A DNA stretch of 44,459 bases from Clostridia bacterium (GTDB lineage Bacteria; Bacillota; Clostridia; Oscillospirales; SIG627), in assembly GCA_017537265.1 (NCBI GenBank), contig JAFYLE010000055.1, positions 1 to 44,459 of the forward strand. The letters run 5' to 3'. Shown here piece after piece: positions 6,312-35,767 of the stretch. The notes under the pieces are model-generated. The model did not search any database, had not been told where the DNA came from, and worked only from the letters and a program-made list of their open reading frames with translations. Made by a program: the position numbers and the translations under genes. The first letter of the stretch is position 1; each line of letters starts with the position of its first letter.

Positions 6312-6338
6312 GAATAATAACATTGAATATGTTATGAT
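6310..6338 (+). promoter_or_regulatory. Predicted promoter of the AT-rich lipoprotein gene (TTGAAT-17 nt-TATGAT)
   Basis: TTGAAT at 6310-6315 and TATGAT at 6333-6338 with a 17-nt spacer. Confidence 0.45.
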
Positions 6339-6372
6339 ATTTACAACGAAAATTGCAAAGGATAGATTGATT

Positions 6373-6912
6373 ATGAAAACACGGCGTTTTATTACTATGA
6401 TTCTGTGCTTGTTTGCTGTTCTCTCTCTGCTGACTTCTTGTTCCGGCTATAATAGCCGAATGCGAAATCACTTAAGCGACGAGGCGAACTACCATTCTTT
6501 CTGCGGTACAATCTGCGATATTTATTATTTTGACGCAGAGAACAATAAAGTAAGCCTTTTGGAATCAGATATAATCCCCGAGTGCGATGTTGTAATTGAA
6601 TTGACATTTGATGATCGTGATGTCATTAGTAAATTTTTGGGTGGTGAGCCAAACCCCGAATGGTCTTTGGATGAATATAAATTTACATTTGACATCACAA
6701 AAGAAAACAATCAGATTCTTGTTACGAATGGGTTCTATGAAGCTGTTAATATGAACACCCAAATTGAAATAACTGCATCAAGTTTTATCTATATGGATTC
6801 TAATTTCTTCTTTATTGCTGCGGTCACCTATAATGAATCAGAGTATTTGCGTTTTGAAGATGGAATCCAAAATATTCGAGAATATATGAAAGAACATAAG
6901 AGCTTGCTGTGA
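6373..6912 (+). CDS. Hypothetical lipoprotein (AT-rich, no recognised family)
   Basis: The 179-aa product starts MKTRRFITMILCLFAVLSLLTSC, a signal peptide plus LTSC lipobox. AAAGGA lies upstream of ATG 6373. The codon composition is visibly AT-rich compared with its neighbours. Confidence 0.7.
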   Translation: MKTRRFITMILCLFAVLSLLTSCSGYNSRMRNHLSDEANYHSFCGTICDIYYFDAENNKVSLLESDIIPECDVVIELTFDDRDVISKFLGGEPNPEWSLDEYKFTFDITKENNQILVTNGFYEAVNMNTQIEITASSFIYMDSNFFFIAAVTYNESEYLRFEDGIQNIREYMKEHKSLL

Positions 6913-6931
6913 GATAGAGGTAATAATTTTT

Positions 6932-6968
6932 TGCACCCCCTTGGCTCAAAAGGGGGTGCATTTGTATT
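6932..6968 (+). terminator. Rho-independent terminator
   Basis: TGCACCCCC / GGGGGTGCA stem with an 11-nt loop, followed by TTTGTATT. Confidence 0.6.
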
Positions 6969-7040
6969 AAAATTAGGGGCAGTCTTCAAAAAAACTCCTG
7001 CAGGTTTTGAGTCAAGGGAATTTTTTGTTTTCGGCAGAGC

Positions 7041-18112: not shown

Positions 18113-18113
18113 G

Positions 18114-18692
18114 TTAGTTCCACTCCTTTTCCGCTCCGTAAAGAGCAATATATGTTTTTGTATGTTCTGTCACTCGCTCAACGTAGGCTCGCGTCTCGTC
18201 AAGCGGGATATTCACAAGTTTGCCATCCTTACCGTAGGCGGGGTTCTGCAACCACTCTGCCACGCGCCCTTCGCCTGCATTGTAGGCGGCGAGCATGGCA
18301 TCCCCTTCGCCGAAACGGTTTTGCATGCGGGAAAGTTGCAGACAGCCGTAGCGGATATTCGTCTCTGCATCCGTCAGACGGGACGGATCGTATTCCTCGC
18401 CCGTCAGGGTGACGAGGTACTCAAAGGTGGATGGCATGATCTGCATCAGCCCCACGGCACCCGCGCGGGAAACAGCGTCTTTGTCAAAGTCGCTCTCCGT
18501 CTTGATGACACCGTACACCAGGGCAGGAGAAAGCGAATACTCGCGGGCGTATTTTTCCACAAGCTTTTCATACTTGACGGGGTACAGATAATCACGCCGC
18601 ACCATGTCGTAGGCCTTGAGCCCAACGAAGGCGATCGCTCCGAGCACGAGAAGCCAGACAAGGACTTTGAACACGATTCGAAGGGCCTTCAC
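18114..18692 (-). CDS. Membrane-anchored lytic transglycosylase (SLT domain)
   Basis: N-terminal TM helix, then the ESDFDKDAVSRAGAVGLMQIMPSTF and AYNAGEGRV motifs. Confidence 0.9.
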   Translation of the reverse strand: MKALRIVFKVLVWLLVLGAIAFVGLKAYDMVRRDYLYPVKYEKLVEKYAREYSLSPALVYGVIKTESDFDKDAVSRAGAVGLMQIMPSTFEYLVTLTGEEYDPSRLTDAETNIRYGCLQLSRMQNRFGEGDAMLAAYNAGEGRVAEWLQNPAYGKDGKLVNIPLDETRAYVERVTEHTKTYIALYGAEKEWN

Positions 18693-21764: not shown

Positions 21765-22022
21765 TTAGCTCTTGAGATAACTCTTGACGATCTGCTGCAA
21801 GAGTTCGTCGCGATCGATCTTGACGATGAGCGCGCGAGCGTTGTTGTAATTGGTGATATACGTGGGGTCTTCCGACAAAATGTAGCCCACGATCTGGCTG
21901 ATGGGGTTGTAACCCTTCTCCACCAGTGCCTCATAGACCGCCATCAAAATGTCGCGAATCTCCTGCTCACGGTTGCGGTTGATGGCAAACTGGATTGTGT
22001 CGGTAAATTTTCTTTGATCCAT
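21765..22022 (-). CDS. ireB: IreB-family regulatory phosphoprotein (UPF0297/YrzL)
   Basis: 85 aa from ATG 22022. MDQRKFTDTIQF...VYEALVEKGYNPISQIVGYILSEDPTYITNYNNAR is the UPF0297 signature. RBS AAGGGGGAAAG at 22037-22027. Confidence 0.9.
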   Translation of the reverse strand: MDQRKFTDTIQFAINRNREQEIRDILMAVYEALVEKGYNPISQIVGYILSEDPTYITNYNNARALIVKIDRDELLQQIVKSYLKS

Positions 22023-22044
22023 AATTCTTTCCCCCTTGGAGACG

Positions 22045-22411
22045 TGTAGAGTGACTGAGCCTGTAAGCCGGGTTCTGTCCGACACTTGCGTGCCGTGGCG
22101 ATCATCTATCTGGGACGTGTGTTGCCACGCGCCTCTTGCCACCTGCGGGCGGGTCGGGCAAACCCATACTGCCCATATACGGTGTTGCTTCGGATAGGGT
22201 TTACAGGACTGCCATGTTACCATGGCGGCCGGTGAGCTCTTACCTCGCCTTTCCACCCTTACCTGCAAAATGCAGGCGGTATATCTCTGTTGCACTTTCC
22301 CGGGAGTCGCCTCCGGCGGGTGTTACCCGTTATCCTGCCTTGTGAAGCCCGGACTTTCCTCACCTCTCAGACTTTCGGCTCGTGCGGCGCGATCGCCCGT
22401 CTCAGTCACTT
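22045..22411 (-). ncRNA. rnpB: RNase P RNA (bacterial type-A-like)
   Basis: All on the minus strand:
- GAGGAAAGTCCGGGC at 22361-22347.
- ACAGAACCCGGCTTACAGG at 22078-22060.
- Closing P1 helix: AGTGACTGAG (22410-22401) with CTCAGTCACT (22059-22050).
- A consensus promoter immediately upstream.
The ends are approximate (+/-5 nt). Confidence 0.9.
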
Positions 22412-22467: not shown

Positions 22468-22496
22468 TTGATAATTTTTCTTATTAGATATATAAT
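22468..22496 (+). promoter_or_regulatory. Predicted promoter of the murD operon (TTGATA-17 nt-TATAAT)
   Basis: TTGATA at 22468-22473 and TATAAT at 22491-22496 with a 17-nt spacer, in an AT-rich divergent region. Confidence 0.6.
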
Positions 22497-22535
22497 ATTA
22501 TAGATTATTAAGCATACGCGAAAGGATGCGCGCTG

Positions 22536-23936
22536 ATGACTCGCAGAAAAGACGGTATCCAAGGGCTGAAAAGCCTTGTGGAGAACAAACGCATTGCCCT
22601 CATCGGACTGGGCCGCACGCACAAGCCGCTCGTGAGTCTCTTTCTTTCCCTCGGAGCAAAGAGCGTCACGGCCCGTGACAGGAAAATTGCCGAGCACCCT
22701 TCCCTCGTTGCCGACGGTGCAACGCTCGTTTTGGGTGACGGCTACCTTGAAAACTTAAGCGAAGACATTATCCTGCGCACGCCCGCCATTCGCCCCGACA
22801 TTCCCGCGCTGAATGCGGCGCGCGAAAACGGTGCGCTGGTGACAAGCGAGATGGAACTCTTCCTCACCTTCTGTCCCGCGAAGGTCTTTGCCATCACGGG
22901 CTCCGACGGAAAGACCACCTCCTCCACGCTGACGGCAAAACTTCTGGAGGCCTCGGGATACCGCGTCTTCCTCGGCGGAAACATCGGTCTGCCGCTCTTG
23001 CCGGTGCTGCACGAGATCACAAAGGACGACGCGGCGGTTCTGGAGCTGTCCAGCTTCCAGCTGATGGGCATGACGGTCTCCCCCGAGCATGCGCTGATCA
23101 CCAACCTCTCGGAAAACCACCTCGACTGGCACACGGACATGGCGGAGTACTGCGAAGCGAAGACCGCCGTTTTTACCCACCAGAGCGAAGACGACCTTTT
23201 GGTCTTAAACGCCGACAACGCCGTCACGCGCGCACTTGCGGGACGCGAAAACGGCAGACTGCGCTTCTTCTCCCGCAAGGAAAAAGTGAAAAACGGTACG
23301 TACTGCACCTCCGACACCCTGCGCTTTGCCGAGGACGGAAACGAAAGCCCGCTCTTTGCCCGCGAAGACATTCTGCTGCCCGGGGAGCACAACTTGGAAA
23401 ATTACCTGGCGGCCCTCGCGCTGACGCACGACTTCATCACCGTATCCGCCGCCCTCTCGGTCGCGCGCTCCTTTGCCGGAGTGGCACACCGCATGGAGCT
23501 TGTGCGCGAGGTAAACAAGATCCGCTTCTACAACTCGTCCATCGACTCCTCGCCCGCGCGCTCTTCCGCGACGCTGAAAGCCTTTGCCAAAAAGCCGATC
23601 GTCATCATGGGCGGGTACGACAAACACTTAAACTACGCGCCGCTTGCCCCCATCATCACCGAGCACGTCAAGGCGCTCGTGCTGACCGGGCAGACGGCTC
23701 CCAAGATCGAAAAAGCACTCGCGGAATACGCTGAATTTGCCGCATCCGGCATTCCCCTGCTGAAGGCCGAAGCCTTTGCGGATGCATTTGCCCTTGCCGC
23801 GGGACTTGCCGAAGAAGGCGACCTTGTCTTGCTCTCCCCCGCGAGTGCAAGCTTTGACCAGTTCCGCGACTTTGAAGAACGCGGTGAGGTCTTCCGCACC
23901 TTGGTGCGAGAATTGGAGGAACATGAAAACATTTGA
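22536..23936 (+). CDS. murD: UDP-N-acetylmuramoyl-L-alanine--D-glutamate ligase
   Basis: - 466 aa.
- N-terminal Rossmann segment RIALIGLGRTHKPLV.
- Mur ligase P-loop ITGSDGKTTSSTL.
- C-terminus SPASASFDQFRDFEERGEVF, typical of MurD. Confidence 0.9.
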   Translation: MTRRKDGIQGLKSLVENKRIALIGLGRTHKPLVSLFLSLGAKSVTARDRKIAEHPSLVADGATLVLGDGYLENLSEDIILRTPAIRPDIPALNAARENGALVTSEMELFLTFCPAKVFAITGSDGKTTSSTLTAKLLEASGYRVFLGGNIGLPLLPVLHEITKDDAAVLELSSFQLMGMTVSPEHALITNLSENHLDWHTDMAEYCEAKTAVFTHQSEDDLLVLNADNAVTRALAGRENGRLRFFSRKEKVKNGTYCTSDTLRFAEDGNESPLFAREDILLPGEHNLENYLAALALTHDFITVSAALSVARSFAGVAHRMELVREVNKIRFYNSSIDSSPARSSATLKAFAKKPIVIMGGYDKHLNYAPLAPIITEHVKALVLTGQTAPKIEKALAEYAEFAASGIPLLKAEAFADAFALAAGLAEEGDLVLLSPASASFDQFRDFEERGEVFRTLVRELEEHENI

Positions 23937-24981
23937 CTTTGCAAAAGAGATCGAGGCGCTCTCCTTCATCTCCGGCATTTCCGGCTGTGAGGAGAAGACC
24001 GCCGAGTTCTTCGCGCGCCGTCTTGAAACGCTCTGCGACGAGGTGAAAACGGACGCGATGGGCAACGTACTCGGCATTATCCGCGCCGAAAGCGAAAACG
24101 CGCCGACGATCCTCATCGACTCCCACTCCGACGAGATCGGTTTTCTCGTCTGTGAGCACGCGGGCGGCGGATTCGTCCGTCTGGCACGTGTGGGCGGTAT
24201 GGACCCCGGTGTGCTTCCTGCCAGCGAAGTGATCCTCTACGGTGAAGAGACCGTGCGTGCCGTGGTGGCCGCCAAGCCCCCGCACCTGCTCTCCGCCGAG
24301 GACCGCAAGAAAAAAAGAAAACTCGAAGATCTCTTCGTGGACACCCTGCTCGACGACGAGACTTGCCGCCGCCTCTGCCCCATCGGCACGCCCGTGGGCT
24401 TCTCCGACGGCGTCGTAAAACTTGCCGAGCACAAGATCGCCTCCCGCGGTCTGGACGACCGTGTGGCGGGTCTGACGCTTCTGGCACTTGCCGAGGCGCT
24501 TGAGAAAAAAGCGCTCAAGGCAAACGTCGCCCTGCTCTTCTCCGTTCAGGAAGAAGTGGGCGGCATGGGTGCGAAAGTAGCCGCCTTCGGCCTTGCACCC
24601 GATACCTGTCTTGCCGTAGACGTGAGTTTTGCCACCTTCCCCGGCGGCGAAGGTCGCCTTTTGGAAATGGGCAAGGGTGCGGGCATCTCCTACTCCGATA
24701 CGCTCTCCCGCACGCTGACGCGCGACGTGATCCGCGTGGCAAACGAGAAAGAGATCCCCTTCCAACTTTTAGCCGAGCCCGGAGAGACGGGCACGAATGC
24801 GCACGACATTCAGGTGGCGGGGCGCGGCGTTGCCTCCACCATCATCTCCCTCCCTCTCTCCTACATGCACTCCCCGAGCGAGGTCATTGACACGCGCGAT
24901 CTGGAGAGCGCGGTGCAACTGATGAAAGCCTACTGCGAGAACGCAAAATTCTTCCCCGAGGAGGTACAGATCGTTGGATAA
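23923..24981 (+). CDS. M42-family metallo-aminopeptidase (FrvX/YsdC/TET type), paralog 1
   Basis: 352 aa from ATG 23923, overlapping the murD stop by 14 nt. Metal-ligand motifs: DSHSDEIGFLV, GLDDRVAG, FSVQEEVGGMGA. Confidence 0.85.
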   Translation: MKTFDFAKEIEALSFISGISGCEEKTAEFFARRLETLCDEVKTDAMGNVLGIIRAESENAPTILIDSHSDEIGFLVCEHAGGGFVRLARVGGMDPGVLPASEVILYGEETVRAVVAAKPPHLLSAEDRKKKRKLEDLFVDTLLDDETCRRLCPIGTPVGFSDGVVKLAEHKIASRGLDDRVAGLTLLALAEALEKKALKANVALLFSVQEEVGGMGAKVAAFGLAPDTCLAVDVSFATFPGGEGRLLEMGKGAGISYSDTLSRTLTRDVIRVANEKEIPFQLLAEPGETGTNAHDIQVAGRGVASTIISLPLSYMHSPSEVIDTRDLESAVQLMKAYCENAKFFPEEVQIVG

Positions 24982-26035
24982 CTTTTACGACCTCTTAAAA
25001 GAGCTCTGCGACATCCCCGCACCGAGTTCTCTGGAAGAAAACGTGCGCGCCTTCCTTATCCCTTACCTCAAGGACCACGTGGATTCGATGAAACTCGACC
25101 GCATGGGCAACCTCATCTGCGAAAAACGCGGCAAAAAGAAGCCCAAGGCCAAAATTTTGCTGTGCGCACACATGGACGAGGTGGGATTTATCGTGACCGA
25201 CATTACCGGTGACGGATACCTGAAGTACGGCACGCTCGGCGGCATTGAAGCAAGCATTCTGCCCGCAAAGCGCCTGTACTTCCCGGAGCTTGACATCTAC
25301 GGCGTCATCTGCGCCAAGCCCATTCACCTCTACCGCGACGAAGAAGAGCTCTACGCCCCGACCAAGCACTCCGCGCTCTACATCGACATCGGTGCGCGCA
25401 CCAAGGAAGAGGCGGAAAAACTCGTCAAGATCGGCGACGTTGCCGTCTTCTCCCGCGAGGCACTCCCCTACTACGACGCGGGTGAGATCATTCGCTCCTC
25501 GGCGCTGGACGACCGTCTCGGCTGTGCGATGCTCTGCGAGCTTTTGACCAAGGGCACACCCGAATACGACATTACCGTCGTCTTCCACGTCAAAGAAGAA
25601 TCCGGCCTGCGCGGTGCAAAGGTCGGCGCTTACGTCAACGACTATTCCTACGCGATCATTCTGGAAGGCACGACGGCCTCCGACCTGCCGGAGGCGGTGG
25701 GCATGAACGCCGTCTGCTACCAGAAGAAGGGCGGCGTGCTCTCTCTCTTCGACGGGGCGACGCTCTACGACACGACGCTCGCGCGCGGCGCCATCGACGC
25801 GCTGAAATCCGCGGGCATTGCCGTGCAGACCAAGCTGAGACTCGCGGGCGGAAACGACGCCGCGGCTCTGCAACGCAGTGCGGGTGCCAAAAAGGTGCTT
25901 GCCCTCTCCGCGCCTTGCCGCTACATCCACTCCCCCGTCTCCACCGTGGCAAAACACGACCTCGACGCCATGCGTGCTTCCCTTGACACACTCATCTCCT
26001 ACTGCGCCGCACAAGGCGAGAAAGGTACCTTATGA
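24974..26035 (+). CDS. M42-family metallo-aminopeptidase, paralog 2
   Basis: 353 aa. TTG start 10 nt after GAGGAGG. Motifs: CAHMDEVGFIV, ALDDRLGCA, FHVKEESGLRGA. Confidence 0.85.
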   Translation: MDNFYDLLKELCDIPAPSSLEENVRAFLIPYLKDHVDSMKLDRMGNLICEKRGKKKPKAKILLCAHMDEVGFIVTDITGDGYLKYGTLGGIEASILPAKRLYFPELDIYGVICAKPIHLYRDEEELYAPTKHSALYIDIGARTKEEAEKLVKIGDVAVFSREALPYYDAGEIIRSSALDDRLGCAMLCELLTKGTPEYDITVVFHVKEESGLRGAKVGAYVNDYSYAIILEGTTASDLPEAVGMNAVCYQKKGGVLSLFDGATLYDTTLARGAIDALKSAGIAVQTKLRLAGGNDAAALQRSAGAKKVLALSAPCRYIHSPVSTVAKHDLDAMRASLDTLISYCAAQGEKGTL

Positions 26036-27042
26036 ACTCCATCACCTCCACCCTGCGCGCGCTGACGAACATCCTCTCCGTCAGCGGCGCGGAAGAAAAA
26101 ATGGCCGCTTATATCTCCGAGACCATGCGCCCTCTGTGCGACGACGTGAACGTTGACGCAATGGGCAACGTGATCTGCAAAAAGAACTACAAGGGCGCAA
26201 AAGAGACCGTGATGCTCACGGCACACATGGACGAGATCGGTTTTCTCGTTTGCGACATTGACGAAAACGGCTTCGTCCTGCTTGCACCCATCGGCGGTAT
26301 CCACGCGGATGCCGCGGCCTACACCCGTGTGAAATTCGAAAACGGCCGTCTCGGCGTGCTCGTCCCCTCCCACGGCACGAAGGCTGCGGATCTCGACGCG
26401 CGCGCCTTTGCCTGCGACATCGGAGCAAAGAACCGTGCCGCCGCCGAAAAGCTCGTCAAGATCGGCGACAGATGCGCAAGTTTTGTTCCCCTTGCCACCC
26501 TCGCCGGCAAGCGTGTGACGGCACGTGCGCTGGACAACAAGGCCGGCGTGCTCTCCCTCATCTGCGCCGCCGATGCCCTGAAAGATGAAAAAGACATGCC
26601 CTACAACCTCGTGTACGTCTTTACGGTGCAAGAGGAGGTCGGTCTGCGCGGCGCCGCGCCCGCGGCCTTTGCCGTTGAGCCCGACTACTGCATCAACGTG
26701 GACGTGACCTCCGCAAACGACGCGTACGGCGCAAAAGGCAGCGTGAAGCTCGGCGGCGGTGCCTGCATCAAGTTCAAGGACCGCTCCGTCATCTGCAACC
26801 GCCGCATGATCTGCCACCTGCAGGAATGCGCGAAGAAAGCCGGCCTCAAAACGCAGGCCGAGATCTTGTCCATGGGCGGCACCGACACGGGTGCCGTACA
26901 GTCCTCGCGTGCAGGCGTGGTCTCCGGTGCGATCTCCATTCCCCTGCGCTACGTGCACAGCGACTGCGAAACCGCCTCCCTCTACGACATTGAGGGTACC
27001 ATCGCCCTGCTTGTTTCCGCAGTGAAAACGAACATTCAATAA
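26032..27042 (+). CDS. M42-family metallo-aminopeptidase, paralog 3
   Basis: 336 aa. ATGA overlap with paralog 2. Motifs: TAHMDEIGFLV, ALDNKAG, FTVQEEVGLRGA. Confidence 0.85.
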   Translation: MNSITSTLRALTNILSVSGAEEKMAAYISETMRPLCDDVNVDAMGNVICKKNYKGAKETVMLTAHMDEIGFLVCDIDENGFVLLAPIGGIHADAAAYTRVKFENGRLGVLVPSHGTKAADLDARAFACDIGAKNRAAAEKLVKIGDRCASFVPLATLAGKRVTARALDNKAGVLSLICAADALKDEKDMPYNLVYVFTVQEEVGLRGAAPAAFAVEPDYCINVDVTSANDAYGAKGSVKLGGGACIKFKDRSVICNRRMICHLQECAKKAGLKTQAEILSMGGTDTGAVQSSRAGVVSGAISIPLRYVHSDCETASLYDIEGTIALLVSAVKTNIQ

Positions 27043-27051
27043 AGGACTCAC

Positions 27052-28278
27052 ATGAACACAAAACAACTTCTGCCCGTCATCCTCGGCAGTGACCAAAACG
27101 CGTACGGCATTGCGCGCTCCTTCTACGAAGCGTACGGTGTCAAGAGCGTAATTCTGGCGCGCCGCGCCCTCTCCGCTACCTCGGAGAGCCACATCGTGCA
27201 TTACGCCGTGCTGGAAGAGAGACTGGAGGAAGACGAGGTCTTCGTCGCGACGCTCGTGCGCTTTGCCGAGAATTCCGGTGACAAGTGCCGCCTCCTCATT
27301 CCCTGTTCCGACTACTACGCACGCCTTGCCGCGCGCCACGCGGAAAAACTGAAGGACCACTACCTCTTTGCCCTCTCCGACGAAGAGACGCTCGTGAGCC
27401 TGGCACAAAAAGAAAACTTCTACGCCATGTGCAAGAAATACGCTCTCTCCTACCCGAAGACTTACGAATTCGACCCCAAGCACGAAGAACCGTGCCTGCC
27501 CTTTGACTTCCCCGTGGTGCTCAAGCCCGCGGACAGCGCCTCTTACTGGAACTGCTCCTTCGAGGGTAAACGCAAAGTGTTTTTCCTGACGGATAAAGCG
27601 CAGTTCGACGACGTTGTGCGCCGCCTGAAGGACAGCGACTACAACGAAAACGTACTGGTACAAAAATTCATCGGCGGCGACGACAGCGCCATGCGCGTGG
27701 TCAACGCCTACATCGGCAAGACGGGCGATCTGCGTCTGTTCTGCGTGGGACAAGTGCTTCTGGAGGAACACACGCCCGAGGGAATCGGCTCTTACGCCGC
27801 CATCATGCCCACGCGCGACGAAGAGCTCTTCGCGCTCTTAAAGCCGATGCTGACCGAGATCGGATACCGCGGCTTTTTGAACATTGACGTCAAGGTGGAT
27901 CCCGCAGACGGCACGTACCAATTCTTTGAACTCAACCCGCGCCAAGGCAGATCCAGCTTCTTCGTGACGGCCGCCGGCGCAAATCTTGCCCGTGTCATCA
28001 CCGAGGACGTATTGGGAGAGGCGCCCACCACGCCCCTCTTCCCCTGCGAGGACGTGCTGTGGACCAATCTGCCCAAGGGTGTCATCCGCCGCTACGTGAA
28101 AAACGAAAAACTGCGCAGTGCCGCGCTGAAGGCCATGCGCCGCGGCCGCGTGTGCCACCAGCTCTACTACAAGAAAGACAAGAGCATAAAGCGCACGAAA
28201 TTCTACCTCTTAAACCAACTCAACCAATACCGCAAATACCGCCGCTACTTTATCGACAAACTTGCCCTCGGCAAGTAA
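27052..28278 (+). CDS. ATP-grasp carboxylate-amine ligase (COG3919-like; the family that, as I recall, includes D-aspartate ligases)
   Basis: 408 aa. Blocks: ILGSDQNAYGIARSFYEAYGV, PVVLKPADS, VLVQKFIGGDD..MRVVNAY, FLNIDVKVDPADGTYQFFELNPRQGRSSFFVTAAG. Confidence 0.7.
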   Translation: MNTKQLLPVILGSDQNAYGIARSFYEAYGVKSVILARRALSATSESHIVHYAVLEERLEEDEVFVATLVRFAENSGDKCRLLIPCSDYYARLAARHAEKLKDHYLFALSDEETLVSLAQKENFYAMCKKYALSYPKTYEFDPKHEEPCLPFDFPVVLKPADSASYWNCSFEGKRKVFFLTDKAQFDDVVRRLKDSDYNENVLVQKFIGGDDSAMRVVNAYIGKTGDLRLFCVGQVLLEEHTPEGIGSYAAIMPTRDEELFALLKPMLTEIGYRGFLNIDVKVDPADGTYQFFELNPRQGRSSFFVTAAGANLARVITEDVLGEAPTTPLFPCEDVLWTNLPKGVIRRYVKNEKLRSAALKAMRRGRVCHQLYYKKDKSIKRTKFYLLNQLNQYRKYRRYFIDKLALGK

Positions 28279-28293
28279 GGAAGGAATCAACCT

Positions 28294-30159
28294 ATGTGTG
28301 GCTTTGCCGGATACATTCGTGACAGTTTGCGCGACAACGACACGGATATTCTGAAAAAAATGACCGACCTCATCGCCCATCGCGGGCCGGACGACGCCTC
28401 CGCCTACATTGACGAGGGGGCGTGCCTCGGCTTTCGCCGCCTGTCCATCATTGACCTTGAGGCGGGCAGACAGCCGATGAAAAACGAGGATTCAACGCTC
28501 GTTCTGACCTTCAACGGTGAGATCTACAACTTCCAGTCCCTGCGCGAAGACCTCAAGGCACGCGGACACGTATTTGCCACGGGTGCGGACAGTGAGGTGC
28601 TTCTGCACGGCTACGAAGAATACGGCGAAGAACTCCCCGCACGTCTGCGCGGCATGTTTGCCTTCGTCATCTGGGATACGAAAAACAAAAAACTCTTCGG
28701 CGCGCGTGACATTTTCGGCATCAAGCCCTTTTATTACTACAAAAACGGCTCCTCCTTCTTCTGGGGCAGCGAGATCAAAAGTTTTCTCGCACATCCCGAC
28801 TTCTGCAAGGAGTTTGATGAAAGCCTGCTGCCCACCTGGCTCTGCTACGAGTACATCCCCTGCGAGAAGACCTTCTTCAAAAACGTATTCAAGTTGCCCG
28901 GTGCCCACTCCTTCACGTATCAAAACGGCGTGATGGAAATTCAAAAATACTACGATATCCGCTTTGACATCCGAGAAGGCCGCACGATGGACGACTGGGC
29001 CGCAGACATTCGCCGCGTCTTTGCCGAAAGCGTGCGCGCACACCGCATCGCCGACGTGGAAGTGGGCTGCTTCCTCTCCAGCGGCGTGGACTCCAGCCTG
29101 GTGGCAAACGAAGTCTCCGTTTCCGCCTCCCCGATGGAGGGCGTGACCGATCCCGTTAAGACCTTCTCCGTGGGCTTTGCCGAGGAGAACGTCTCCGAAC
29201 TTGCCGACGCAGCTGAATTTGCCCGCGCGGTGAACTTGCCGAACATTCAAAACCGCATTACGGCGGACGACTTCTTCTCCGCGACCTCAGCAATTCAATA
29301 CATGATGGACGAGCCGCTCCCCAACCCCAGCCAGGTGCCGCTCTATTTCTTGTGCGAAAATGCCGCCAAATACGTGAAAGTAGTCCTCTCCGGCGAAGGT
29401 GCTGACGAACTGTTCGGCGGCTACCCGATGTACCTTGCCGAATGGCATCAAGCGCGCTTTGCCCGCAGAGTGCCGCGCGCCGTGCGCCGCCTTATGGGAA
29501 AAGCGGCCGCCCGCTTCTCCTTCAAAGGCAGTCACTTCCTTGCAGAAAGCGCAAAAACACCTCTGGAGCGTTACCCGCGCGCAAATTACAACTACACCAG
29601 AGAAAGCCGTTGGGACATACTCAAAGAAAAGACGGACGCCCCCGATCCCCTCACCTTCTCCGCACCCTACTTTGCACGCGCCGAACGCGAGGGCTGGGAC
29701 TCCCCCACCGCGACGCAATACGCAGACATTTTCGTGTGGATGGCCTACGACATTCTGCAAAAGGCAGACCGCATGAGTATGGCGCACTCGCTGGAGTTGC
29801 GCGTGCCTTTCCTCGACCGCGAAGTGCTCGCCCTTGCCATGCAGTTGCCGCAGAGCATGCGCGCCTTTGACACCACGACCAAGGCCGCCCTACGCGCCTC
29901 CGCCGCGCACCTGCCGAAAAAGACGGCGACCATGAAGAAAAAAGGCTTTGCCACCCCGCTTGACGCGTGGCTGCGCGAAGAAAAATTCTACAACGAAGTC
30001 TACGGAAAACTGACCGGCGAGATCGCCGAAAAATTCTTCAAGACCGACGTGCTCAAACGCCTGATGGAAGAACACAAGAAGGGCGCGCACAACATGAAAA
30101 AGATCTACCTGATCTACTCGTTCGTGGTATGGTACGAAGAATTCTTTGTAAAAAGATAA
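28294..30159 (+). CDS. asnB: Asparagine synthetase B-type glutamine amidotransferase
   Basis: 621 aa. N-terminal nucleophile MCGFAGY, PP-loop FLSSGVDSS and a typical AsnB C-terminal domain. The true substrate is not determinable from sequence. Confidence 0.85.
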   Translation: MCGFAGYIRDSLRDNDTDILKKMTDLIAHRGPDDASAYIDEGACLGFRRLSIIDLEAGRQPMKNEDSTLVLTFNGEIYNFQSLREDLKARGHVFATGADSEVLLHGYEEYGEELPARLRGMFAFVIWDTKNKKLFGARDIFGIKPFYYYKNGSSFFWGSEIKSFLAHPDFCKEFDESLLPTWLCYEYIPCEKTFFKNVFKLPGAHSFTYQNGVMEIQKYYDIRFDIREGRTMDDWAADIRRVFAESVRAHRIADVEVGCFLSSGVDSSLVANEVSVSASPMEGVTDPVKTFSVGFAEENVSELADAAEFARAVNLPNIQNRITADDFFSATSAIQYMMDEPLPNPSQVPLYFLCENAAKYVKVVLSGEGADELFGGYPMYLAEWHQARFARRVPRAVRRLMGKAAARFSFKGSHFLAESAKTPLERYPRANYNYTRESRWDILKEKTDAPDPLTFSAPYFARAEREGWDSPTATQYADIFVWMAYDILQKADRMSMAHSLELRVPFLDREVLALAMQLPQSMRAFDTTTKAALRASAAHLPKKTATMKKKGFATPLDAWLREEKFYNEVYGKLTGEIAEKFFKTDVLKRLMEEHKKGAHNMKKIYLIYSFVVWYEEFFVKR

Positions 30160-30164
30160 CGAAA

Positions 30165-30192
30165 AAGCCCGCGTTCTGCGGGCTTCTTTGTT
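30165..30192 (+). terminator. Rho-independent terminator ending the murD operon
   Basis: AAGCCCGC-gttct-GCGGGCTT followed by CTTTGTT. Confidence 0.75.
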
Positions 30193-30201
30193 GCTCAAAT
30201 T

Positions 30202-30254
30202 TTACGATTATTCGTAATATTGAACTTGACTTTTACGAAAACTTGTGATATAAT
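30202..30254 (+). promoter_or_regulatory. Promoter (TTGACT-17 nt-TATAAT) with TTACGA operator-like half-sites
   Basis: - Promoter: TTGACT at 30226-30231 and TATAAT at 30249-30254.
- Palindrome TTACGA-ttat-TCGTAA at 30202-30217.
- A third TTACGA at 30233-30238, inside the spacer. Confidence 0.55.
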
Positions 30255-30309
30255 TTGCTCAAGCGAATGAGGGGCGCGAAGAATGACTTTTGCAAAGGAG
30301 AAAATACAA

Positions 30310-30522
30310 ATGAATACGACTGCAAGAGAGATGCGTGGAAATCTTCGCGCCGCGCTGGACTCCGTACGGCAGGCAACGCAGAGTCTGCCGCAGGAAATGG
30401 AAGAGATCTACGACGACTTAAAGTGGGTGGAAGAATCGTTATTGGCGGCGCTTGTCGAACGCGAAGAAACGTTCGCCGTCGAGCGGGAGACCAAGGAACT
30501 CGAGGAGCTCTTCGAATGCTGA
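30310..30522 (+). CDS. Small acidic helical protein (70 aa), unknown family
   Basis: ATG 30310 lies 10 nt after AAGGAG. The product is MNTTAREMRGNLRAALDSVRQATQSLPQEMEEIYDDLKWVEESLL... The stop overlaps the next gene's start (ATGCTGA). ATG 30283 is an alternative start. Confidence 0.55.
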   Translation: MNTTAREMRGNLRAALDSVRQATQSLPQEMEEIYDDLKWVEESLLAALVEREETFAVERETKELEELFEC

Positions 30523-31037
30523 AAAACGCCGCCGGACACGCAATGCGCGGAGATGCGGCAAGCCGCTTTTTGGCAAAACTTGAGCGCATGCGCACCTGCA
30601 TTGACGAAGAGGAACGCCTGCTTTCCCTCTTTGAGCGACAGGTGCCGAAGCCCCTTTCCGAATACGGCGGCATGGATCTTGCAACGCACGACGTGCTTCT
30701 GGAACTTGCCCCGACCAAGGACGCCGTGCGCACCAAGTTGTTCGTGCACTACCGCGTGTTTGAACGAATGTGCCGTGCACTCTCCGCGGCGATCCGCCGC
30801 ATTCCCGAAAGCACGGTGCGCGACTACCTCGTATGGCACTACCTCTACCAATTCACCCACGAGGTCATTGCCGAGGTGATGAACTACTCCGTGCGCCAGA
30901 TCTACCGACTGGCCGCGCGCTCGCGCGTGGAGCTCTCCCGCGCGCTGAAGATTCCCCCGCAGGCAAAGCCCGCAAAGTTCAAGCGCTTTCGCGTAGTGAA
31001 ACGCTTAAAGAAGTGCAAACTGAAAAAGGCGGGGTAA
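30516..31037 (+). CDS. Sigma-70 region-4-like HTH regulator (DUF1492/phage or ICE-type activator-like)
   Basis: 173 aa. The C-terminal segment TVRDYLVWHYLYQFTHEVIAEVMNYSVRQIYRLAARSRVELSRAL looks like a region-4 HTH, followed by a basic tail. The ORF-track start at 30255 lies inside the -10 box and its first 87 codons are Arg/Gly-rich shadow frame. Confidence 0.55.
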   Translation: MLKNAAGHAMRGDAASRFLAKLERMRTCIDEEERLLSLFERQVPKPLSEYGGMDLATHDVLLELAPTKDAVRTKLFVHYRVFERMCRALSAAIRRIPESTVRDYLVWHYLYQFTHEVIAEVMNYSVRQIYRLAARSRVELSRALKIPPQAKPAKFKRFRVVKRLKKCKLKKAG

Positions 31038-31135
31038 AAAACGATAACAAACGTTCTTTTCAAAAGAAAAACGCAAAAACGGCCTACGGTGTATCCGAAC
31101 CGTCTTGACACCGACAAAGAAAAACCGCGCTTTAT

Positions 31136-31171
31136 GGCGTTGTACCCGTAAGGATACAACGCCAGTTTTAT
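31136..31171 (+). terminator. Hairpin with GUAA tetraloop plus U-tract
   Basis: GGCGTTGTA-cc-c-GTAA-gg-a-TACAACGCC followed by AGTTTTATT. Confidence 0.6.
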
Positions 31172-31288
31172 TCGCCTTTGGCGAGTTGTATTGCTTCGCA
31201 GTTATATTTGTCTTACGACAAGTGTTATTGCCTTCGGCAGTTTCGGGGCGAATAAAATACCACTGAAACCGTAAGGTTTCAATAACAC
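31166..31288 (+). other. Hairpin-rich spacer with two interleaved perfect inverted repeats
   Basis: - Pair A: TTTTATTCGCC (31166-31176) with GGCGAATAAAA (31247-31257).
- Pair B: GTGTTATTG (31222-31230) with CAATAACAC (31280-31288).
- The order is A-B-A'-B'.
- Small local hairpins lie at 31172-31184, 31208-31221, 31229-31239 and 31265-31280. Confidence 0.7.
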
Positions 31289-31304
31289 TTTTGATTTATC
31301 AAAA

Positions 31305-31365
31305 ATATCACTGTGAGACCTGTCTCACAATATCACTTGAAAAACAAACTAAAAATTTATATAAT
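31305..31365 (+). promoter_or_regulatory. Operator-like palindrome plus consensus promoter (TTGAAA-17 nt-TATAAT)
   Basis: - Palindrome TGTGAGAC-ct-GTCTCACA at 31312-31329.
- Flanked by direct ATATCACT copies at 31305-31312 and 31330-31337.
- Promoter: TTGAAA at 31337-31342 and TATAAT at 31360-31365. Confidence 0.55.
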
Positions 31366-31383
31366 AAACCTAGAGGTGATTTT

Positions 31384-31788
31384 ATGGGTTTGTTTGATAT
31401 CTTTAAGAAAAAGAAGGTTGAATTAACCGAAGAACAATTAAAATGGAATAAAATGTGGGAGCTGTGGACTGAGAAAAAGGTGGATTCTCCATATGCAGAG
31501 CTTATGACATACCAAAGCGAAATCAACAATGGCGGACACAACCAATATTTCACCAATGTTGAAAACACAAGTGATTTAAACAAAGAAATTTCCGCCTTGG
31601 AACAAATCTTGTCAGCAGAACTGAAAAATAATCTGAATAAAGCATATAAAGCTTATTTGATATTAGAGAAAAAAGAGGAAGACGAAGAAGCGGAGGAAAC
31701 TTTAGAACAGTGCGACGATGTATTCTATGAAAACGAGGAAGAAGTTAATCGTTTGCTTGAAGAATATGCTTGTAAAATAGAACTGTGA
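31384..31788 (+). CDS. DMP19/DUF4375-like protein (DNA-mimic or immunity-type family), AT-rich
   Basis: 134 aa from ATG 31384. The motif SEINNGGHNQYFTNVEN resembles the NNGGFxQFFxN core of DUF4375. The C-terminus is acidic. The ORF-track TTG start at 31291 precedes the predicted promoter. Confidence 0.6.
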   Translation: MGLFDIFKKKKVELTEEQLKWNKMWELWTEKKVDSPYAELMTYQSEINNGGHNQYFTNVENTSDLNKEISALEQILSAELKNNLNKAYKAYLILEKKEEDEEAEETLEQCDDVFYENEEEVNRLLEEYACKIEL

Positions 31789-31894
31789 TTTAACCCGCTG
31801 TTTACTTAGCAAGGTTGAAAGGGTTTTAGGTTCTCCTAAAGTGTAGAAAATTTGATATACATTTTCCCTGCTTGTTACGGTGTAAGACAAAATT

Positions 31895-31928
31895 AAAAGA
31901 AGCACGAAATTTTCGTGCTTCTTTTTTT
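31895..31928. terminator. Bidirectional terminator between convergent genes
   Basis: AAAAGAAGCACGA-aattt-TCGTGCTTCTTTTTTT. Confidence 0.85.
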
Positions 31929-31972
31929 GCTGTCCTTTAGAGTACGCCTCTTATGGCGCGGTTTTTCTGCTT

Positions 31973-33877
31973 TTACTCTTCATCGAAGCCGAAGATGGGG
32001 GCGTCGCCGCCGTCCTCCTCGTCCTCGTCGATAATGGGGTTATTCTTACGGAAGACGTCCTCGTCGCTCTCCCCGTTGAAGATGCGCTCGATCTCCGGAT
32101 GTCCGCGGCGCTCCTCGGCGGGGACTGCGCTCGCCGACTTGGGCGCGCTCTCGCGGCGCTGGCGGGAAGGTGTAAGTTCGGACAAGGGCTCGATCGTTCC
32201 GAGCTCCTCCCAAATGGGAACGGAACGGCTTCCCTTCTCCTCGCCCGACGTTGCGGCAAGTGCGGCCACGAGGGCGGCGGCGTCCTCTGCGAGAACGGGT
32301 TCCTCCTTCTTTGGCAAGGGCGGGATCTCCTGCGTGGGGGCGGCGGCGGTAAAAGACACAGTCTCCTCTGCGACGGAGGAAATCTCCTGCGGCAAAAAAT
32401 AAGGCGTTTGCTCTTGCGGCACGTCCTCGCGCGCGACGGTGGCGGGCGGGTAATACAAAGGCAATTCCTCTTGTTGCTCACGGCGTTTGCCGCGACGGGC
32501 AGCAAGGACGGCAAAGACGATCACAAGAATGATGAGAATCAGAATGACGGCGCCTGCAATAAGAACTGCATAATTGAAATAGCGCAGAAGTTCGCCCTTT
32601 TCCTCCACGGCCTCGGACAAGGCGGCTTTGAGCTCCTCGTTCTCTCCCTCCTGCGGCGTGACGGTCTGCGGCTCAAAATAAAGAGTAAAGTCGCCGCTCT
32701 TGCGATCGTAACGGTAAAAAGCGGGGCTGCCGTCGATGGGGGCGGCATACACGAGTGTTTGCGGAGAAGACAAGGTTACGTCGTTCTTCTCCCAGGCGTC
32801 TTGCTCGACACCCGCAACCACGAGAATGCTCGGCACAAAGCCCTCGGGGACGGAGACGTTTTGCGGTTTTTTTACAAAAACGTATTTCTGCGGGACGGTC
32901 TCCACCTCAAAGTAGGGGTAGAACTCGCCCGACGCCTCGTCGTACAAAAAGGCCTTAGATGCGCTCTCTGCCGAAGTCTGCGTGATGAGCACGGCAAGCT
33001 TCAGCGAAGAAGCGGCGTTCTCATAAAACAAAACCGACTTGCCGTTATACGTACCCTCCACGGGGGCAAAACCTGCGGGAGCGGTGACCTCCGAGGGATC
33101 CCGCGGGAAGAGGTAACTATCCCCCTCGACGGTGACCTGCTCGGCAAACAAATTCGACGCCTTGCGATTTACGACGACGGTATAAGTCCTGGTATTGCCG
33201 TTCTCGGCGGTGACGGTGATCTGAACGGTATTCTCACCCTCTGCGAGTTCGTCCGCGCCCGAAACGCGCACGGAGGCGGCGCTGTGTTTGGCGGAAGCGG
33301 CAAACTTGAGGCCCGTGACGGAATACGGCACCTCGCCGCTGTAGCGGGTGACGTCGGGGTCAAAATCCGGTGTAAATGCAAAGCCCTCGCAAGTGAGTGC
33401 AGAGAGGCGGTTCTCCCACGATGCGGCGGGACGATTGACGATGGAAACGGTGCGGCTCGCCTCCGAAACGGAGATGGAAGAATAATCCTCCGCATACACC
33501 TCACGCGTGACGGTGGAGATCCTTGCCTCGCCGAGAGCGACGGTCTTGAACGTGATGGTATAGCTCTTGCTCGTCACACCGCCCGAAGCAGGCTGATCGA
33601 CAAAATTCAAGGTGCCGCCCGTGGTGGACTGAGCACCCGAGACGTACTGCAGTTTGTCGGAATCGTACTCGATACCGAAGCTCCACGTGGCCATGGGTGT
33701 GGCAGAGGTATACGTGACGGTAACGTAAACGTGATTGCCCAGATACACCTCGCGTGCGGAAAGGCCGATGGTAGCCGTGCCGCCTGCCGCATAGGCGCGC
33801 AGGCTGATAAAAGCAGGCAACAGAAGGGCAAGGGCAAGCAAGATCAAAAACAGACGGAACACAAAGCGTTTTTTCAT
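31973..33877 (-). CDS. Type-I membrane protein with cohesin-like domain, cadherin-like beta-sandwich domain, TM helix and long acidic cytoplasmic tail
   Basis: - Signal peptide MKKRFVFRLFLILLALALLLPAFISLRAYA.
- Cohesin-like block: ATIGLS..YLGNHVYVTVTY...WSFGIEYDSDKLQYV...ITFKTVALGEARI.
- Cadherin-like block: LSALTCEGFAFTPDFDPDVTRY...ITVTAENGNTRTYTVVVNR.
- TM helix AVLIAGAVILILIILVIVFAVLAA. Confidence 0.7.
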   Translation of the reverse strand: MKKRFVFRLFLILLALALLLPAFISLRAYAAGGTATIGLSAREVYLGNHVYVTVTYTSATPMATWSFGIEYDSDKLQYVSGAQSTTGGTLNFVDQPASGGVTSKSYTITFKTVALGEARISTVTREVYAEDYSSISVSEASRTVSIVNRPAASWENRLSALTCEGFAFTPDFDPDVTRYSGEVPYSVTGLKFAASAKHSAASVRVSGADELAEGENTVQITVTAENGNTRTYTVVVNRKASNLFAEQVTVEGDSYLFPRDPSEVTAPAGFAPVEGTYNGKSVLFYENAASSLKLAVLITQTSAESASKAFLYDEASGEFYPYFEVETVPQKYVFVKKPQNVSVPEGFVPSILVVAGVEQDAWEKNDVTLSSPQTLVYAAPIDGSPAFYRYDRKSGDFTLYFEPQTVTPQEGENEELKAALSEAVEEKGELLRYFNYAVLIAGAVILILIILVIVFAVLAARRGKRREQQEELPLYYPPATVAREDVPQEQTPYFLPQEISSVAEETVSFTAAAPTQEIPPLPKKEEPVLAEDAAALVAALAATSGEEKGSRSVPIWEELGTIEPLSELTPSRQRRESAPKSASAVPAEERRGHPEIERIFNGESDEDVFRKNNPIIDEDEEDGGDAPIFGFDEE

Positions 33878-33883
33878 GAATAA

Positions 33884-35767
33884 TTACCCTTTCTGTGAAA
33901 TGGTGTATAGTCCGAGATTGGCGTCGCGCAGTTTCAGTAAGTCAAGCGAATTGACCTTGCCGTCACCGTCGATATCCGCCGCGGCTTTGTAGGCTGAGGC
34001 AAAGTCCTTTTTGCCGAGCAAATAGTCGCGCAGATACAAAAGGTCAAGCGCTTCCACGCCGCCATTACCCGAGACGTCCCCACGCACGACAGCGGTATAG
34101 CTGCGGATCACTTCCCCTTTGAAGAGAATGCGCACCTGCGTGCCGGTACCGACTGCGGCGGAAGAGATGCTAAGCGTCGTTTCCTCACCCAAAGTAAAGC
34201 GGGAGCGGAAAGCCTTTTCTTCGGTCTTCGGTGCAATGCCGTACATGAAACCGTCGTCCGTCATGGTGTATTGTGACTCGAAAAACGGCTTAAGCTCCTC
34301 TGCGGGAGGATCCTCCTGTGCGGGCGGTTCGGTCGGTTCTCCGCCCTCGGGGGTCTCTCCTCCGCTTCCCTCTCCGCCGCCCGACGGCGGGACGGGACTG
34401 ATACTGTCCACGGTCGGCAAGGGAGAAACGGTCTGCGGCATATCATTGTAAACAGGGATCAAAAACTCATGGGAAAGCTCCGTCAAAGTATGCTCCTGCA
34501 TACTGCGGAAGGTGAAAAGAGCCTCCGTCTCCGGATGGGTGAGGTTCTGCATGTACTGATGCCAGATACCGTTGGGAGAGGCGGGATTGACGTTGAATTT
34601 CTTGAGATACGCGGTCTGCTGACCGTTGTTTATGTAATTGTCCCCTTGGAATGAGGCGCCGCCGACGATGGCCTTGTACGCCGTATTCCAGCCCTTCTCC
34701 ATGGCGTAGAGCAGGCCGTTGTGCTGGGGGCTGCCGCCCGGTGTGGAACCGATGCCGTAAAAGTTATAATAGCCGCGATGCTCCTCGCTGTCACAGCCTG
34801 CCTTGGTGCAGACGATCCCGTCGTGATTGCCCATGGAAAGACCCGTGCCGACGGTGCCGTTTTCCGCAAAGGAGGTGATGAGAAGGTAATACGGGCTGAT
34901 GCCGGTGAGCTTGGCAGCGTCCAAAAACGCCTCGGCGTAGCTGACCTCTTCCTCCCGATCGTTTACAGTCGTCAAGGTAGCCATATAAGTGCCTTCCACC
35001 ATCTTTTCCACGCTCTCAAGCGTGTGGATGCTCTCGTCATACGCCTGTGCGGAGAACATGAAGATATCCACGTCGTTCAAGAAATTGCGCGGATCCATGA
35101 AATACGCAACGGTCGCCTCCGACGCACAATACTTGGTGCCGCCGTCAAGCAAGGTGGTGGCGGCGTTCATGCCGTTGAGCGTAACGGTGGAGCGGTAAAC
35201 GGACGCGTACGACTTGTCGATAAACGAGGGAGAGGAAAGATCCCCGCGGCTGTTGACGGAAACCACCGCCTGCGCGCTGACGGCCGAGGAAAAGTCCTTC
35301 TCGGTCTCCAGCGGTAAAAACGTCCACGTAGGATGAGCCGCCTTGAGCGCGGCGAGGGCGGGACGGTAGCTTTGCGGAAACTTTGCAAACTCCTCGGTTT
35401 CATAGTCCAGCTTCTCCCCCGCAAACACGAGGGTGCTGTGCACGTAACCGACGTAACACTTCCCATCCTTCAAATTGGTGTAGCGCACCTTATACCAAAG
35501 CGTGGAGCCGTCGTAAGAGTCGCCCTCAACTTCCTCCAAAACGGGCAAGACCTGATGCTTGCCGAAGGAAAAGTCGTACTTGCTCTCCGGATTCAAATTC
35601 GGCGCCTTGCGGAAGCGAATGGAGGCGGTGGTATAACAGTAGCGCAAAGGAAGTTCCTGTTCTGCGGGTGCGTCTGCAAAAAGAGTCAAAAACGGCGGGA
35701 GGACGGCAAAAAACAGAAGGGTACACAAAAGGGCGCAGAGAGCGCGCAAAAAGCGAGTGCGATGCAT
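33884..35767 (-). CDS. Secreted SH3b + glucosaminidase-like (GH73-type) peptidoglycan hydrolase with C-terminal type-I dockerin
   Basis: - Signal peptide present.
- SH3b-like block: LWYKVRY...GYVHSTLV.
- Hydrolase-like block: YYLLITSFAENG...YYNFYGIGS...GQQTAYLKKFNVNP.
- Dockerin duplicated Ca-binding loops: DVSGNGGVEALDLLYLRDYLLG and DIDGDGKVNSLDLLKLRDANLG.
The dockerin call is strong; the catalytic family call is moderate. Confidence 0.7.
   Translation of the reverse strand: MHRTRFLRALCALLCTLLFFAVLPPFLTLFADAPAEQELPLRYCYTTASIRFRKAPNLNPESKYDFSFGKHQVLPVLEEVEGDSYDGSTLWYKVRYTNLKDGKCYVGYVHSTLVFAGEKLDYETEEFAKFPQSYRPALAALKAAHPTWTFLPLETEKDFSSAVSAQAVVSVNSRGDLSSPSFIDKSYASVYRSTVTLNGMNAATTLLDGGTKYCASEATVAYFMDPRNFLNDVDIFMFSAQAYDESIHTLESVEKMVEGTYMATLTTVNDREEEVSYAEAFLDAAKLTGISPYYLLITSFAENGTVGTGLSMGNHDGIVCTKAGCDSEEHRGYYNFYGIGSTPGGSPQHNGLLYAMEKGWNTAYKAIVGGASFQGDNYINNGQQTAYLKKFNVNPASPNGIWHQYMQNLTHPETEALFTFRSMQEHTLTELSHEFLIPVYNDMPQTVSPLPTVDSISPVPPSGGGEGSGGETPEGGEPTEPPAQEDPPAEELKPFFESQYTMTDDGFMYGIAPKTEEKAFRSRFTLGEETTLSISSAAVGTGTQVRILFKGEVIRSYTAVVRGDVSGNGGVEALDLLYLRDYLLGKKDFASAYKAAADIDGDGKVNSLDLLKLRDANLGLYTISQKG

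Follow-up and report, generated by a model that had tools for sequence, protein, structure and literature searches.

In the pathway described in lactic acid bacteria, the racemase RacD makes D-aspartate (D-Asp), the ligase AslA (Aslfm) adds it to the L-Lys at position 3 of the peptidoglycan precursor UDP-N-acetylmuramoyl (UDP-MurNAc)-pentapeptide, and the amidotransferase AsnH amidates the added residue to D-iso-asparagine (D-isoAsn) (PMC4155827, PMC13631041); D-Asp ligation and amidation are mentioned for Bifidobacterium adolescentis as well (bioRxiv 2023.10.08.561446). AsnB-type enzymes also amidate the meso-diaminopimelate (mDAP) of peptidoglycan, in L. plantarum, B. subtilis, Listeria and Corynebacterium (PMC4155827). 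The M42 peptidases that have been characterized, CelM and TmPep1050 among them, are not cellulases but TET aminopeptidases activated by cobalt (PMC3511314). Here we describe a six-gene operon of an Oscillospirales member (Clostridia bacterium, assembly GCA_017537265.1), encoded in contig JAFYLE010000055.1, of which positions 1 to 44,459 were analyzed and are hereinafter referred to as the window. In this operon, murD is followed by three M42 peptidase genes, a gene for an ATP-grasp carboxylate-amine ligase and a gene for an AsnB-type amidotransferase. The first-pass annotation saw in these genes a candidate for an undescribed system for tailoring or recycling the peptidoglycan stem peptide. 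However, each of the three gene sets is already known, so that the operon is not a new system, and the step catalyzed by the ligase and the amidotransferase most likely is that of the published AslA/RacD/AsnH pathway; the part of the proposal that had this pair ligate an amino acid and amidate a carboxylate in peptidoglycan is supported by both the family and the context of the genes. The reading that we favor, with a probability of about 65%, is that three separately conserved modules have been strung together under one promoter in this clade only, and that the ligase and the AsnB-type enzyme constitute an AslA/AsnH-type D-Asp/D-isoAsn cross-bridge pathway. The analysis establishes which genes are present, their homology, the conservation of their contexts and the existence of fusions; the substrates, the order of the reactions, the single transcript and the role of the M42 enzymes are inferred.

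The ATP-grasp protein has no match in Pfam, GNAT domains included, and only weak matches in NCBIfam; a sequence search of solved structures likewise yielded only marginal matches (carbamoyl-phosphate synthetase, E 1e-3), with no D-Asp ligase structure among them. The best Protein Data Bank matches that Foldseek found for an AlphaFold (AF2) model of the protein, built on 21 relatives (predicted local distance difference test score, pLDDT, 88; predicted template modeling score, pTM, 0.85), are L-amino-acid ligases, PurK, biotin carboxylase and Ddl, with E values of ~1e-13 to 1e-15; PylC and D-Ala-D-lactate ligase match as well, and the ATP-grasp fold is thus confirmed at the level of the predicted structure. 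The Mg/ATP-binding motif E293-x-N295 is invariant in the alignment of the 21 relatives. The family is large, with 527 representatives at E<1e-30 in a full profile search, and the sampled members that are named D-aspartate ligase in UniProt or JGI come from Periweissella, Pediococcus, Lacticaseibacillus songhuajiangensis, Abyssicoccus and Paraoerskovia. The similarity to such proteins extends from end to end, with 36% identity to the Lacticaseibacillus homolog (E 2e-87, residues 8-405), 35% to that of Paraoerskovia and 30% to that of Periweissella (E values from 2e-65 to 2e-87). The clade of the window retains 82 columns that are at least 93% conserved in the rest of the family, and differs from it consistently in 11 columns, mostly by conservative changes. 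In some family members (P0127, P0156, P0232, P0164, P0257), the ligase is part of a fusion protein; its partner is an Asp/Glu racemase in two of them (649 and 677 aa), a DegT-like aminotransferase together with FemAB in one (1235 aa), DegT alone in another (832 aa) and a response-regulator receiver domain in the fifth (627 aa).

The genomic neighborhood of the ligase was compared in 80 related Oscillospirales loci, from Acutalibacteraceae, Gemmiger, Allofournierella, Anaeromassilibacillus, Neglectibacter, Fumia and others; the counts refer to the 64 loci with enough downstream sequence. The collection searched consists of species representatives and lacks the window genome itself, the nearest genomes being metagenome-assembled ones of Eubacteriales/Clostridia from the ruminant gut, with a best ligase match of 80%. 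An orthologous AsnB, with 53-59% identity to that of the window, is encoded 3' of the ligase in 60 of the 64 loci, and in 36 of the 64 an aspartate racemase of ~240 aa (Asp_Glu_race; TIGR00035, 220 bits) lies between the two. The wall-related neighbors of the ligase in these relatives are murE, a penicillin-binding protein (PBP) gene, BacA and BlaI/BlaR: in [Clostridium] methylpentosum the gene order is asnB2-ligase-racemase-asnB, followed by BacA and BlaI/BlaR, and in Gemmiger and Allofournierella a second asnB paralog and murE are located divergently upstream, with a class B PBP a few genes further on in L076. The distance from murE and the second asnB to the ligase is ~1.5-3.5 kb (L046, L055, L060, L062, L070, L071, L074, L076). 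The presence of this murE/asnB2 couple beside the ligase pair, together with the invariant DNNR that their MurE has in place of the DNPR of mDAP-type enzymes, suggests that amidation takes place in two distinct steps in these bacteria and that their position-3 specificity is unusual.

The amidotransferase of the window starts with Met-Cys-Gly, that is, with the N-terminal cysteine nucleophile, and contains the GATase_7 (152 bits) and Asn_synthase (272 bits) domains (TIGR01536, 472 bits). In the genomes that encode both paralogs, the murE-side copy is 45-49% identical to the window protein, compared with the 53-59% of the copy that follows the ligase and racemase; by this measure, the window AsnB is the ortholog of the ligase-linked copy and not of the murE-linked one. 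Judged by its context, the protein most likely is AsnH-like, with D-Asp rather than mDAP as the substrate. Because the ligase belongs to the D-aspartate ligase family, because racemase and AsnB genes usually follow it in the relatives and because the family includes racemase and FemAB fusions, the two proteins most likely represent the AslA/RacD/AsnH pathway. Under this reading, MurD would be the housekeeping ligase that puts D-Glu on UDP-MurNAc-L-Ala. The AslA/Aslfm-type enzyme would activate the beta-carboxylate of D-Asp as an acyl phosphate and attach it to UDP-MurNAc-pentapeptide, at the side-chain amino group of the diamino acid in position 3, and the AsnB-type enzyme would then use glutamine and ATP to amidate the free alpha-carboxylate, yielding the D-isoAsn side chain that serves as the cross-bridge.

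The operon consists of six co-directional open reading frames (ORFs) on the plus strand, at 22536-30159, flanked by a single, strong promoter-like site and a single terminator-like site (Table 1); in this respect, the sequence bears out the packing, overlaps and gaps that the first-pass annotation had reported, and the family assignments that it had made for all six proteins hold in the model scores and in the AF2 fold. The hairpin downstream of the last gene is the top plus-strand terminator-like site of the 10-kb region scanned, and it can form on either strand. Inside the operon, the scan detected a single weak promoter-like site (9/12) and a few stems of 5-6 bp. From the tight packing of the genes, a single transcript is inferred for all six.

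Table 1. Features of the murD-M42-ligase-asnB operon (window coordinates)
Feature	Coordinates	Strand	Length	Description
Promoter-like site, sigma-70-type, 5' of murD	22468..22496	+		TTGATA-17 nt-TATAAT; 11/12 positions match
murD	22536..23936	+	466 aa	UDP-MurNAc-L-alanine:D-glutamate ligase
M42-1	23923..24981	+	352 aa	TET-type aminopeptidase; ATG start after GGAGGA; 14-nt overlap with murD
M42-2	24974..26035	+	353 aa	TET-type aminopeptidase; TTG start after GAGGAGG; 8-nt overlap with M42-1
M42-3	26032..27042	+	336 aa	TET-type aminopeptidase; ATGA overlap with M42-2
ATP-grasp gene	27052..28278	+	408 aa	Carboxylate-amine ligase, D-aspartate ligase (AslA/Aslfm) family; 9-nt gap after M42-3
AsnB-type gene	28294..30159	+	621 aa	Glutamine-dependent amidotransferase, AsnH-like by context; 15-nt gap after ATP-grasp gene
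Intrinsic terminator-like hairpin, GC-rich	30165..30192	+		AAGCCCGCG-TTC-TGCGGGCTT, then CTTTGTT (T-rich tail)

The same murD-M42x3-ligase-asnB operon was found in three relatives, with ligase identities of 81%, 70% and 60%. The junction distances are -4/-8/-4/+12/+18 in L164, -4/-11/-4/+1/+3 in L165 and -8/-11/+15/+15/+3 in L166, and the two long contigs (L164 and L165) share the upstream context of M18 peptidase-SLT-coaE-sua5-prfA-IreB. Thus, the arrangement and its tight packing are conserved within a clade, and only the clade of the window has all six genes in one operon. In SVTV01, JAZRZU01 and JAZQTE01, the murD-M42 and ligase-asnB genes are on separate contigs; in four other loci (L041, L054, L061, L099) the two sets are divergent neighbors, and in L052 they lie several kb apart.

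The MurD protein scores 341.6 bits with the TIGR01087 equivalog model (cut-off 212) over residues 20-458, contains the Pfam domains Mur_ligase_M and Mur_ligase_C and, in the alignment with its relatives, retains the P-loop GSDGKTT and the NHLDWH motif. Its gene is located outside of the division and cell wall (dcw) cluster, with rnpB and IreB upstream and M42 downstream, a position that the first-pass annotation had treated as unusual. We compared 80 related Oscillospirales murD loci, in which the flanking ORFs were clustered, the recurrent groups annotated and single loci inspected. The gene 3' of murD encodes an M42 peptidase in 34 of these loci, and IspD (18), GNAT (9) or YunB (4) among the other clustered neighbors; the 5' neighbors are mixed, including transporters, RNase J, Tex and a VanY-like protein. 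None of the annotated recurrent neighbors in the 80 loci, and none of the genes in the inspected ones, was mraY, ftsW or murG, so the position of murD outside dcw is the norm of the order Oscillospirales and does not mark a special paralog. Locus retrieval yielded one murD locus per genome across the 80 genomes, although a divergent second copy could escape it, and the only second Mur ligase or dcw-like arrangement seen among the ligase and murD loci (L001-L160) was the murE beside asnB2 of the Gemmiger/Allofournierella type.

In many Oscillospirales (L082, L097, L036), a GNAT acetyltransferase and a YnbB-like pyridoxal phosphate (PLP) enzyme (Pfam Met_gamma_lyase, 584-620 bits) are encoded after the murD(-M42-M42) unit; this recurrent arrangement has no evident link to wall synthesis. 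Upstream of the window murD, rnpB (RNase P RNA, class A, 279 bits; 22048-22408, minus strand) is divergently oriented; its promoter-like site at 22444-22416 (minus strand) is a perfect 12/12 sigma-70-like match ~25 nt from the -35 box of murD, so that the two promoters are back-to-back in a common AT-rich spacer of 60 nt. The Rfam search identified no riboswitch or leader 5' of murD, with the divergent rnpB as the only match.

The three M42 proteins match Peptidase_M42 with 223 (M42-1), 221 (M42-2) and 250 bits (M42-3), and their pairwise identity is merely 27-34%. The His/Asp/Glu-Glu/Asp/His columns of two-metal ligands and catalytic residues are retained in all three, with a single Asp->Glu change in M42-2. 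In the alignment of M42-3 with PhTET2 (1y0r), every metal-binding and catalytic residue is conserved, and the leucyl aminopeptidase TmPep1050 (3isx/4p6y) is a close second; the nearest solved chains are the lysyl aminopeptidase 4x8i and 1vho for M42-1, and 2fvg for M42-2. Three related chains have been deposited as 'endoglucanase', and each paralog has a different best partner among them (M42-1 with 1vho, M42-2 with 2fvg, M42-3 with 3isx/4p6y); these chains are, we presume, the products of the adjacent Thermotoga maritima genes TM1048-TM1050.

In 80 loci retrieved by a search seeded with M42-1 orthologs, the homologs of M42-1, M42-2 and M42-3 follow one another in this fixed order, or the first two of them do, in all but a few of the sufficiently long contigs. 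The gene directly 5' is murD in 45 of the 80, every one of the Oscillospirales type, so the attachment of murD is an Oscillospirales feature; no murD accompanies the triad in Tissierellia, Alkaliphilus, Marinisporobacter, Anaerosalibacter, Sedimentibacter, Monoglobales, Anaerolineae and other Bacillota. Judging from this distribution, the M42 triad is an old, self-contained, peptide-degrading cassette and, because it occurs without murD in distant phyla, it gives no indication of wall-peptide trimming; the role in which the first-pass annotation had cast these enzymes most likely is wrong. The three divergent, catalytically intact enzymes would rather break oligopeptides down into free amino acids, probably either with specificities that complement one another or as dodecamers of mixed composition, and their input to wall synthesis, if any, would be indirect, through amino-acid supply. 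Both the dodecamer and the aminopeptidase activity are predicted from homology, as is the function of the trio in this operon.

Several observations weigh against the interpretation of the ligase and AsnB as a D-Asp/D-isoAsn pathway joined to two other modules. Our search of the 44-kb window and of the six-gene loci of the relatives found no aspartate racemase, and the amino acid that the ligase adds could therefore differ from D-Asp; a Lacticaseibacillus homolog of the ligase is likewise without an adjacent racemase. The link of the ligase to the characterized Aslfm and AslA runs, in sequence terms, through annotated homologs from Lactobacillaceae, and a search with the Periweissella protein as the query yielded Lactobacillaceae proteins but none from Enterococcus or Lactococcus. 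DNPR is the motif of mDAP-type MurE. Since the MurE of the Gemmiger/Allofournierella relatives has an invariant DNNR, which keeps the arginine of that motif, a Lys acceptor at position 3 is not assured. Furthermore, murD, the M42 genes and the ligase pair adjoin in several different arrangements within the order, which could reflect true functional coupling of M42 to wall synthesis, and the window genome may encode a second murD. It is conceivable, albeit quite unlikely, that the union of these genes in one transcript is no accident, in that either the ligase of the racemase-less clade uses a different amino acid than D-Asp, such as D-Glu, in keeping with the murD linkage, or the M42 trio is dedicated to feeding or recycling amino acids for wall precursors. 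The former would amount to a chemotype of peptidoglycan so far undescribed in gut Clostridia, and the latter would explain the linkage of the murD-M42 cassette across Oscillospirales.

A more far-reaching proposal is that all six proteins form one dedicated system for stem-peptide tailoring or recycling, with the M42 enzymes trimming wall peptides and MurD being a specialized second copy. The translational coupling over all junctions, the retention of the six-gene operon within a clade and the varied ways in which murD, M42 and the ligase pair are neighbors in other Oscillospirales (L041, L054, L061, L099, L052, L036) speak in its favor. Yet in distant phyla the M42 triad is found with neither murD nor the ligase, the murD-M42 and ligase-asnB sets are on separate contigs in the three genomes named above, MurD scores above the equivalog cut-off and is the single copy retrieved per related genome, and the characterized M42 enzymes are general L-aminopeptidases (PMC3511314). 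Altogether, a single six-protein system appears clearly improbable.

It is unlikely, too, that the AsnB enzyme amidates mDAP at position 3, as L. plantarum AsnB1, LtsA and the AsnB of B. subtilis and Listeria do, instead of a D-Asp residue added by the ligase. Amidotransferases of this type that act on mDAP are well documented (PMC4155827), the MurE of related Ruminococcaceae retains the arginine of the DNPR-like motif, and Faecalibacterium is reported to contain mDAP (PMC11382707); however, the murE-side copy is the other paralog, and both the orthology of the window AsnB to the copy linked with the ligase and racemase and the adjacency of the pair in nearly all loci point to the ligase product. 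Another scheme would have the M42, ATP-grasp and AsnB enzymes make and turn over a small amidated peptide unrelated to peptidoglycan, as does the trio of AsnO, Ngg and an M42 peptidase in the case of the osmoprotectant N-acetylglutaminylglutamine amide (NAGGN). The same three enzyme classes are involved and there are weak matches to the respective models, trio_amidotrans and trio_M42_hydro. We consider such a role extremely improbable given that the ligase belongs to the D-aspartate ligase family and lacks a GNAT (acetyltransferase) domain, that the racemase/FemAB fusions and wall-gene neighborhoods indicate peptidoglycan, and that the M42 genes travel with murD or alone and not with the ligase pair. 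Membership in the NAGGN trio itself was rejected on the scores (318 versus a cut-off of 570 bits and 39-69 versus 398 bits; TIGR03104, TIGR03106), as well as on the missing GNAT domain and the peptidoglycan context.

The surroundings of the operon include additional genes related to the cell wall or to peptide degradation. Just upstream, on the minus strand, are genes for an IreB-family regulatory phosphoprotein (21765-22049; 124 bits), an SLT lytic transglycosylase (18114-18692), both of which add to the cell-wall-related genes beside the operon, and, 4 kb away, an M18 (aspartyl-type) aminopeptidase (16739-18148), the fourth metallo-aminopeptidase in the vicinity, which is kept in L164 and L165. 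The segment directly past the terminator, 30226-31037, contains an ORF that weakly matches sigma-70 region 4 and, ahead of it, a strong promoter-like site (TTGACT-17-TATAAT, TG-extended); in L164 and L165, this position is taken by small ORFs without annotation. Two islands of 37% GC, in a genome of ~57% GC, are possibly small acquired islets: the one at 6001-7000, just past tRNA-Ser(CGA) (6045-6133), contains a 200-aa ORF without a Pfam match, and the one at 31001-32000 contains a DMP19-like protein (31291-31788) with a promoter-like site of its own. Two large proteins are encoded at 31973-35767 on the minus strand; one has a cadherin-like beta-sandwich and the other a type I dockerin domain, which hints that the organism has a surface apparatus of the cellulosome type.

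The interest of these findings is modest and lies in the prediction of peptidoglycan of the D-Asp/D-isoAsn type in poorly characterized gut Clostridia and in the murD-M42 linkage. The wall chemistry of most gut Oscillospirales is unmeasured; in a recent review table, Ruminococcus and Oscillibacter have no entry for the peptidoglycan type, and that for Faecalibacterium is limited to the diamino acid, mesoDAP (PMC11382707). The ligase/racemase/amidotransferase set has a wide distribution, with carriers among Acutalibacteraceae, Gemmiger, Allofournierella, Anaeromassilibacillus, Neglectibacter, Fumia and [Clostridium] methylpentosum, and therefore D-Asp/D-isoAsn side chains or cross-bridges are predicted for many abundant commensals. 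Such structures affect the sensitivity to lysozyme and autolysins, beta-lactam responses and the muropeptides that are sensed by the NOD receptors of the host. In addition, the expectation that annotation attaches to murD is to be corrected for Oscillospirales, where this gene resides outside dcw. The literature search returned nothing relevant on a link between M42 and murD, so this conserved linkage has no published explanation.

Compared with known systems, the window operon combines familiar parts in a distinct arrangement. The NAGGN trio of AsnO, Ngg and an M42 peptidase resembles it in that these three enzyme classes are encoded together. With the TET/M42 enzymes, namely, PhTET1-3 of Pyrococcus, TmPep1050 of Thermotoga, CelM of C. 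thermocellum and three M42 proteins of Symbiobacterium, the window proteins share the Peptidase_M42 fold, all metal ligands and, as in Pyrococcus, the presence of several divergent paralogs in one genome; the TET paralogs of Pyrococcus have complementary specificities. In contrast to these, the three M42 genes of the window are translationally coupled to murD. MurT/GatD, which amidates the D-isoGlu of lipid II, is similar in that a protein of the Mur ligase family is encoded together with a wall-amidating glutamine amidotransferase, but the Mur ligase of the window is a bona fide MurD by its model score, and its amidotransferase is of the AsnB type (class II) and not a GatD (class I). AsnB1 of L. 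plantarum, LtsA of C. glutamicum and the AsnB proteins of B. subtilis and L. monocytogenes have the same architecture, an Ntn-glutaminase followed by a synthetase, and act on peptidoglycan precursors; asnB1 adjoins murE in L. plantarum, as the second asnB paralog does in the Gemmiger/Allofournierella relatives. The window protein differs from them by its orthology to the ligase-linked copy and by its predicted substrate, the added D-Asp instead of mDAP. The closest counterpart is the combination of AslA/Aslfm, RacD and AsnH in Lactococcus lactis, Enterococcus faecium and Lacticaseibacillus, where an ATP-grasp ligase of the same family acts ahead of an AsnB-type amidotransferase, with the same predicted chemistry, D-Asp and then D-isoAsn, and with a racemase that in most relatives of the window is encoded between the two. 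The differences are that the host is an uncultured, high-GC Oscillospirales clade and not a member of Lactobacillales, with 30-36% identity to the Lactobacillaceae enzymes, and that the operon of the window is without a racemase and is joined to murD and the M42 genes. Furthermore, the ligase and amidotransferase genes of the window are adjacent and putatively co-transcribed, whereas in L. lactis adjacency of aslA and asnH is not reported, and aslA is in an operon with racD (PMC4155827).

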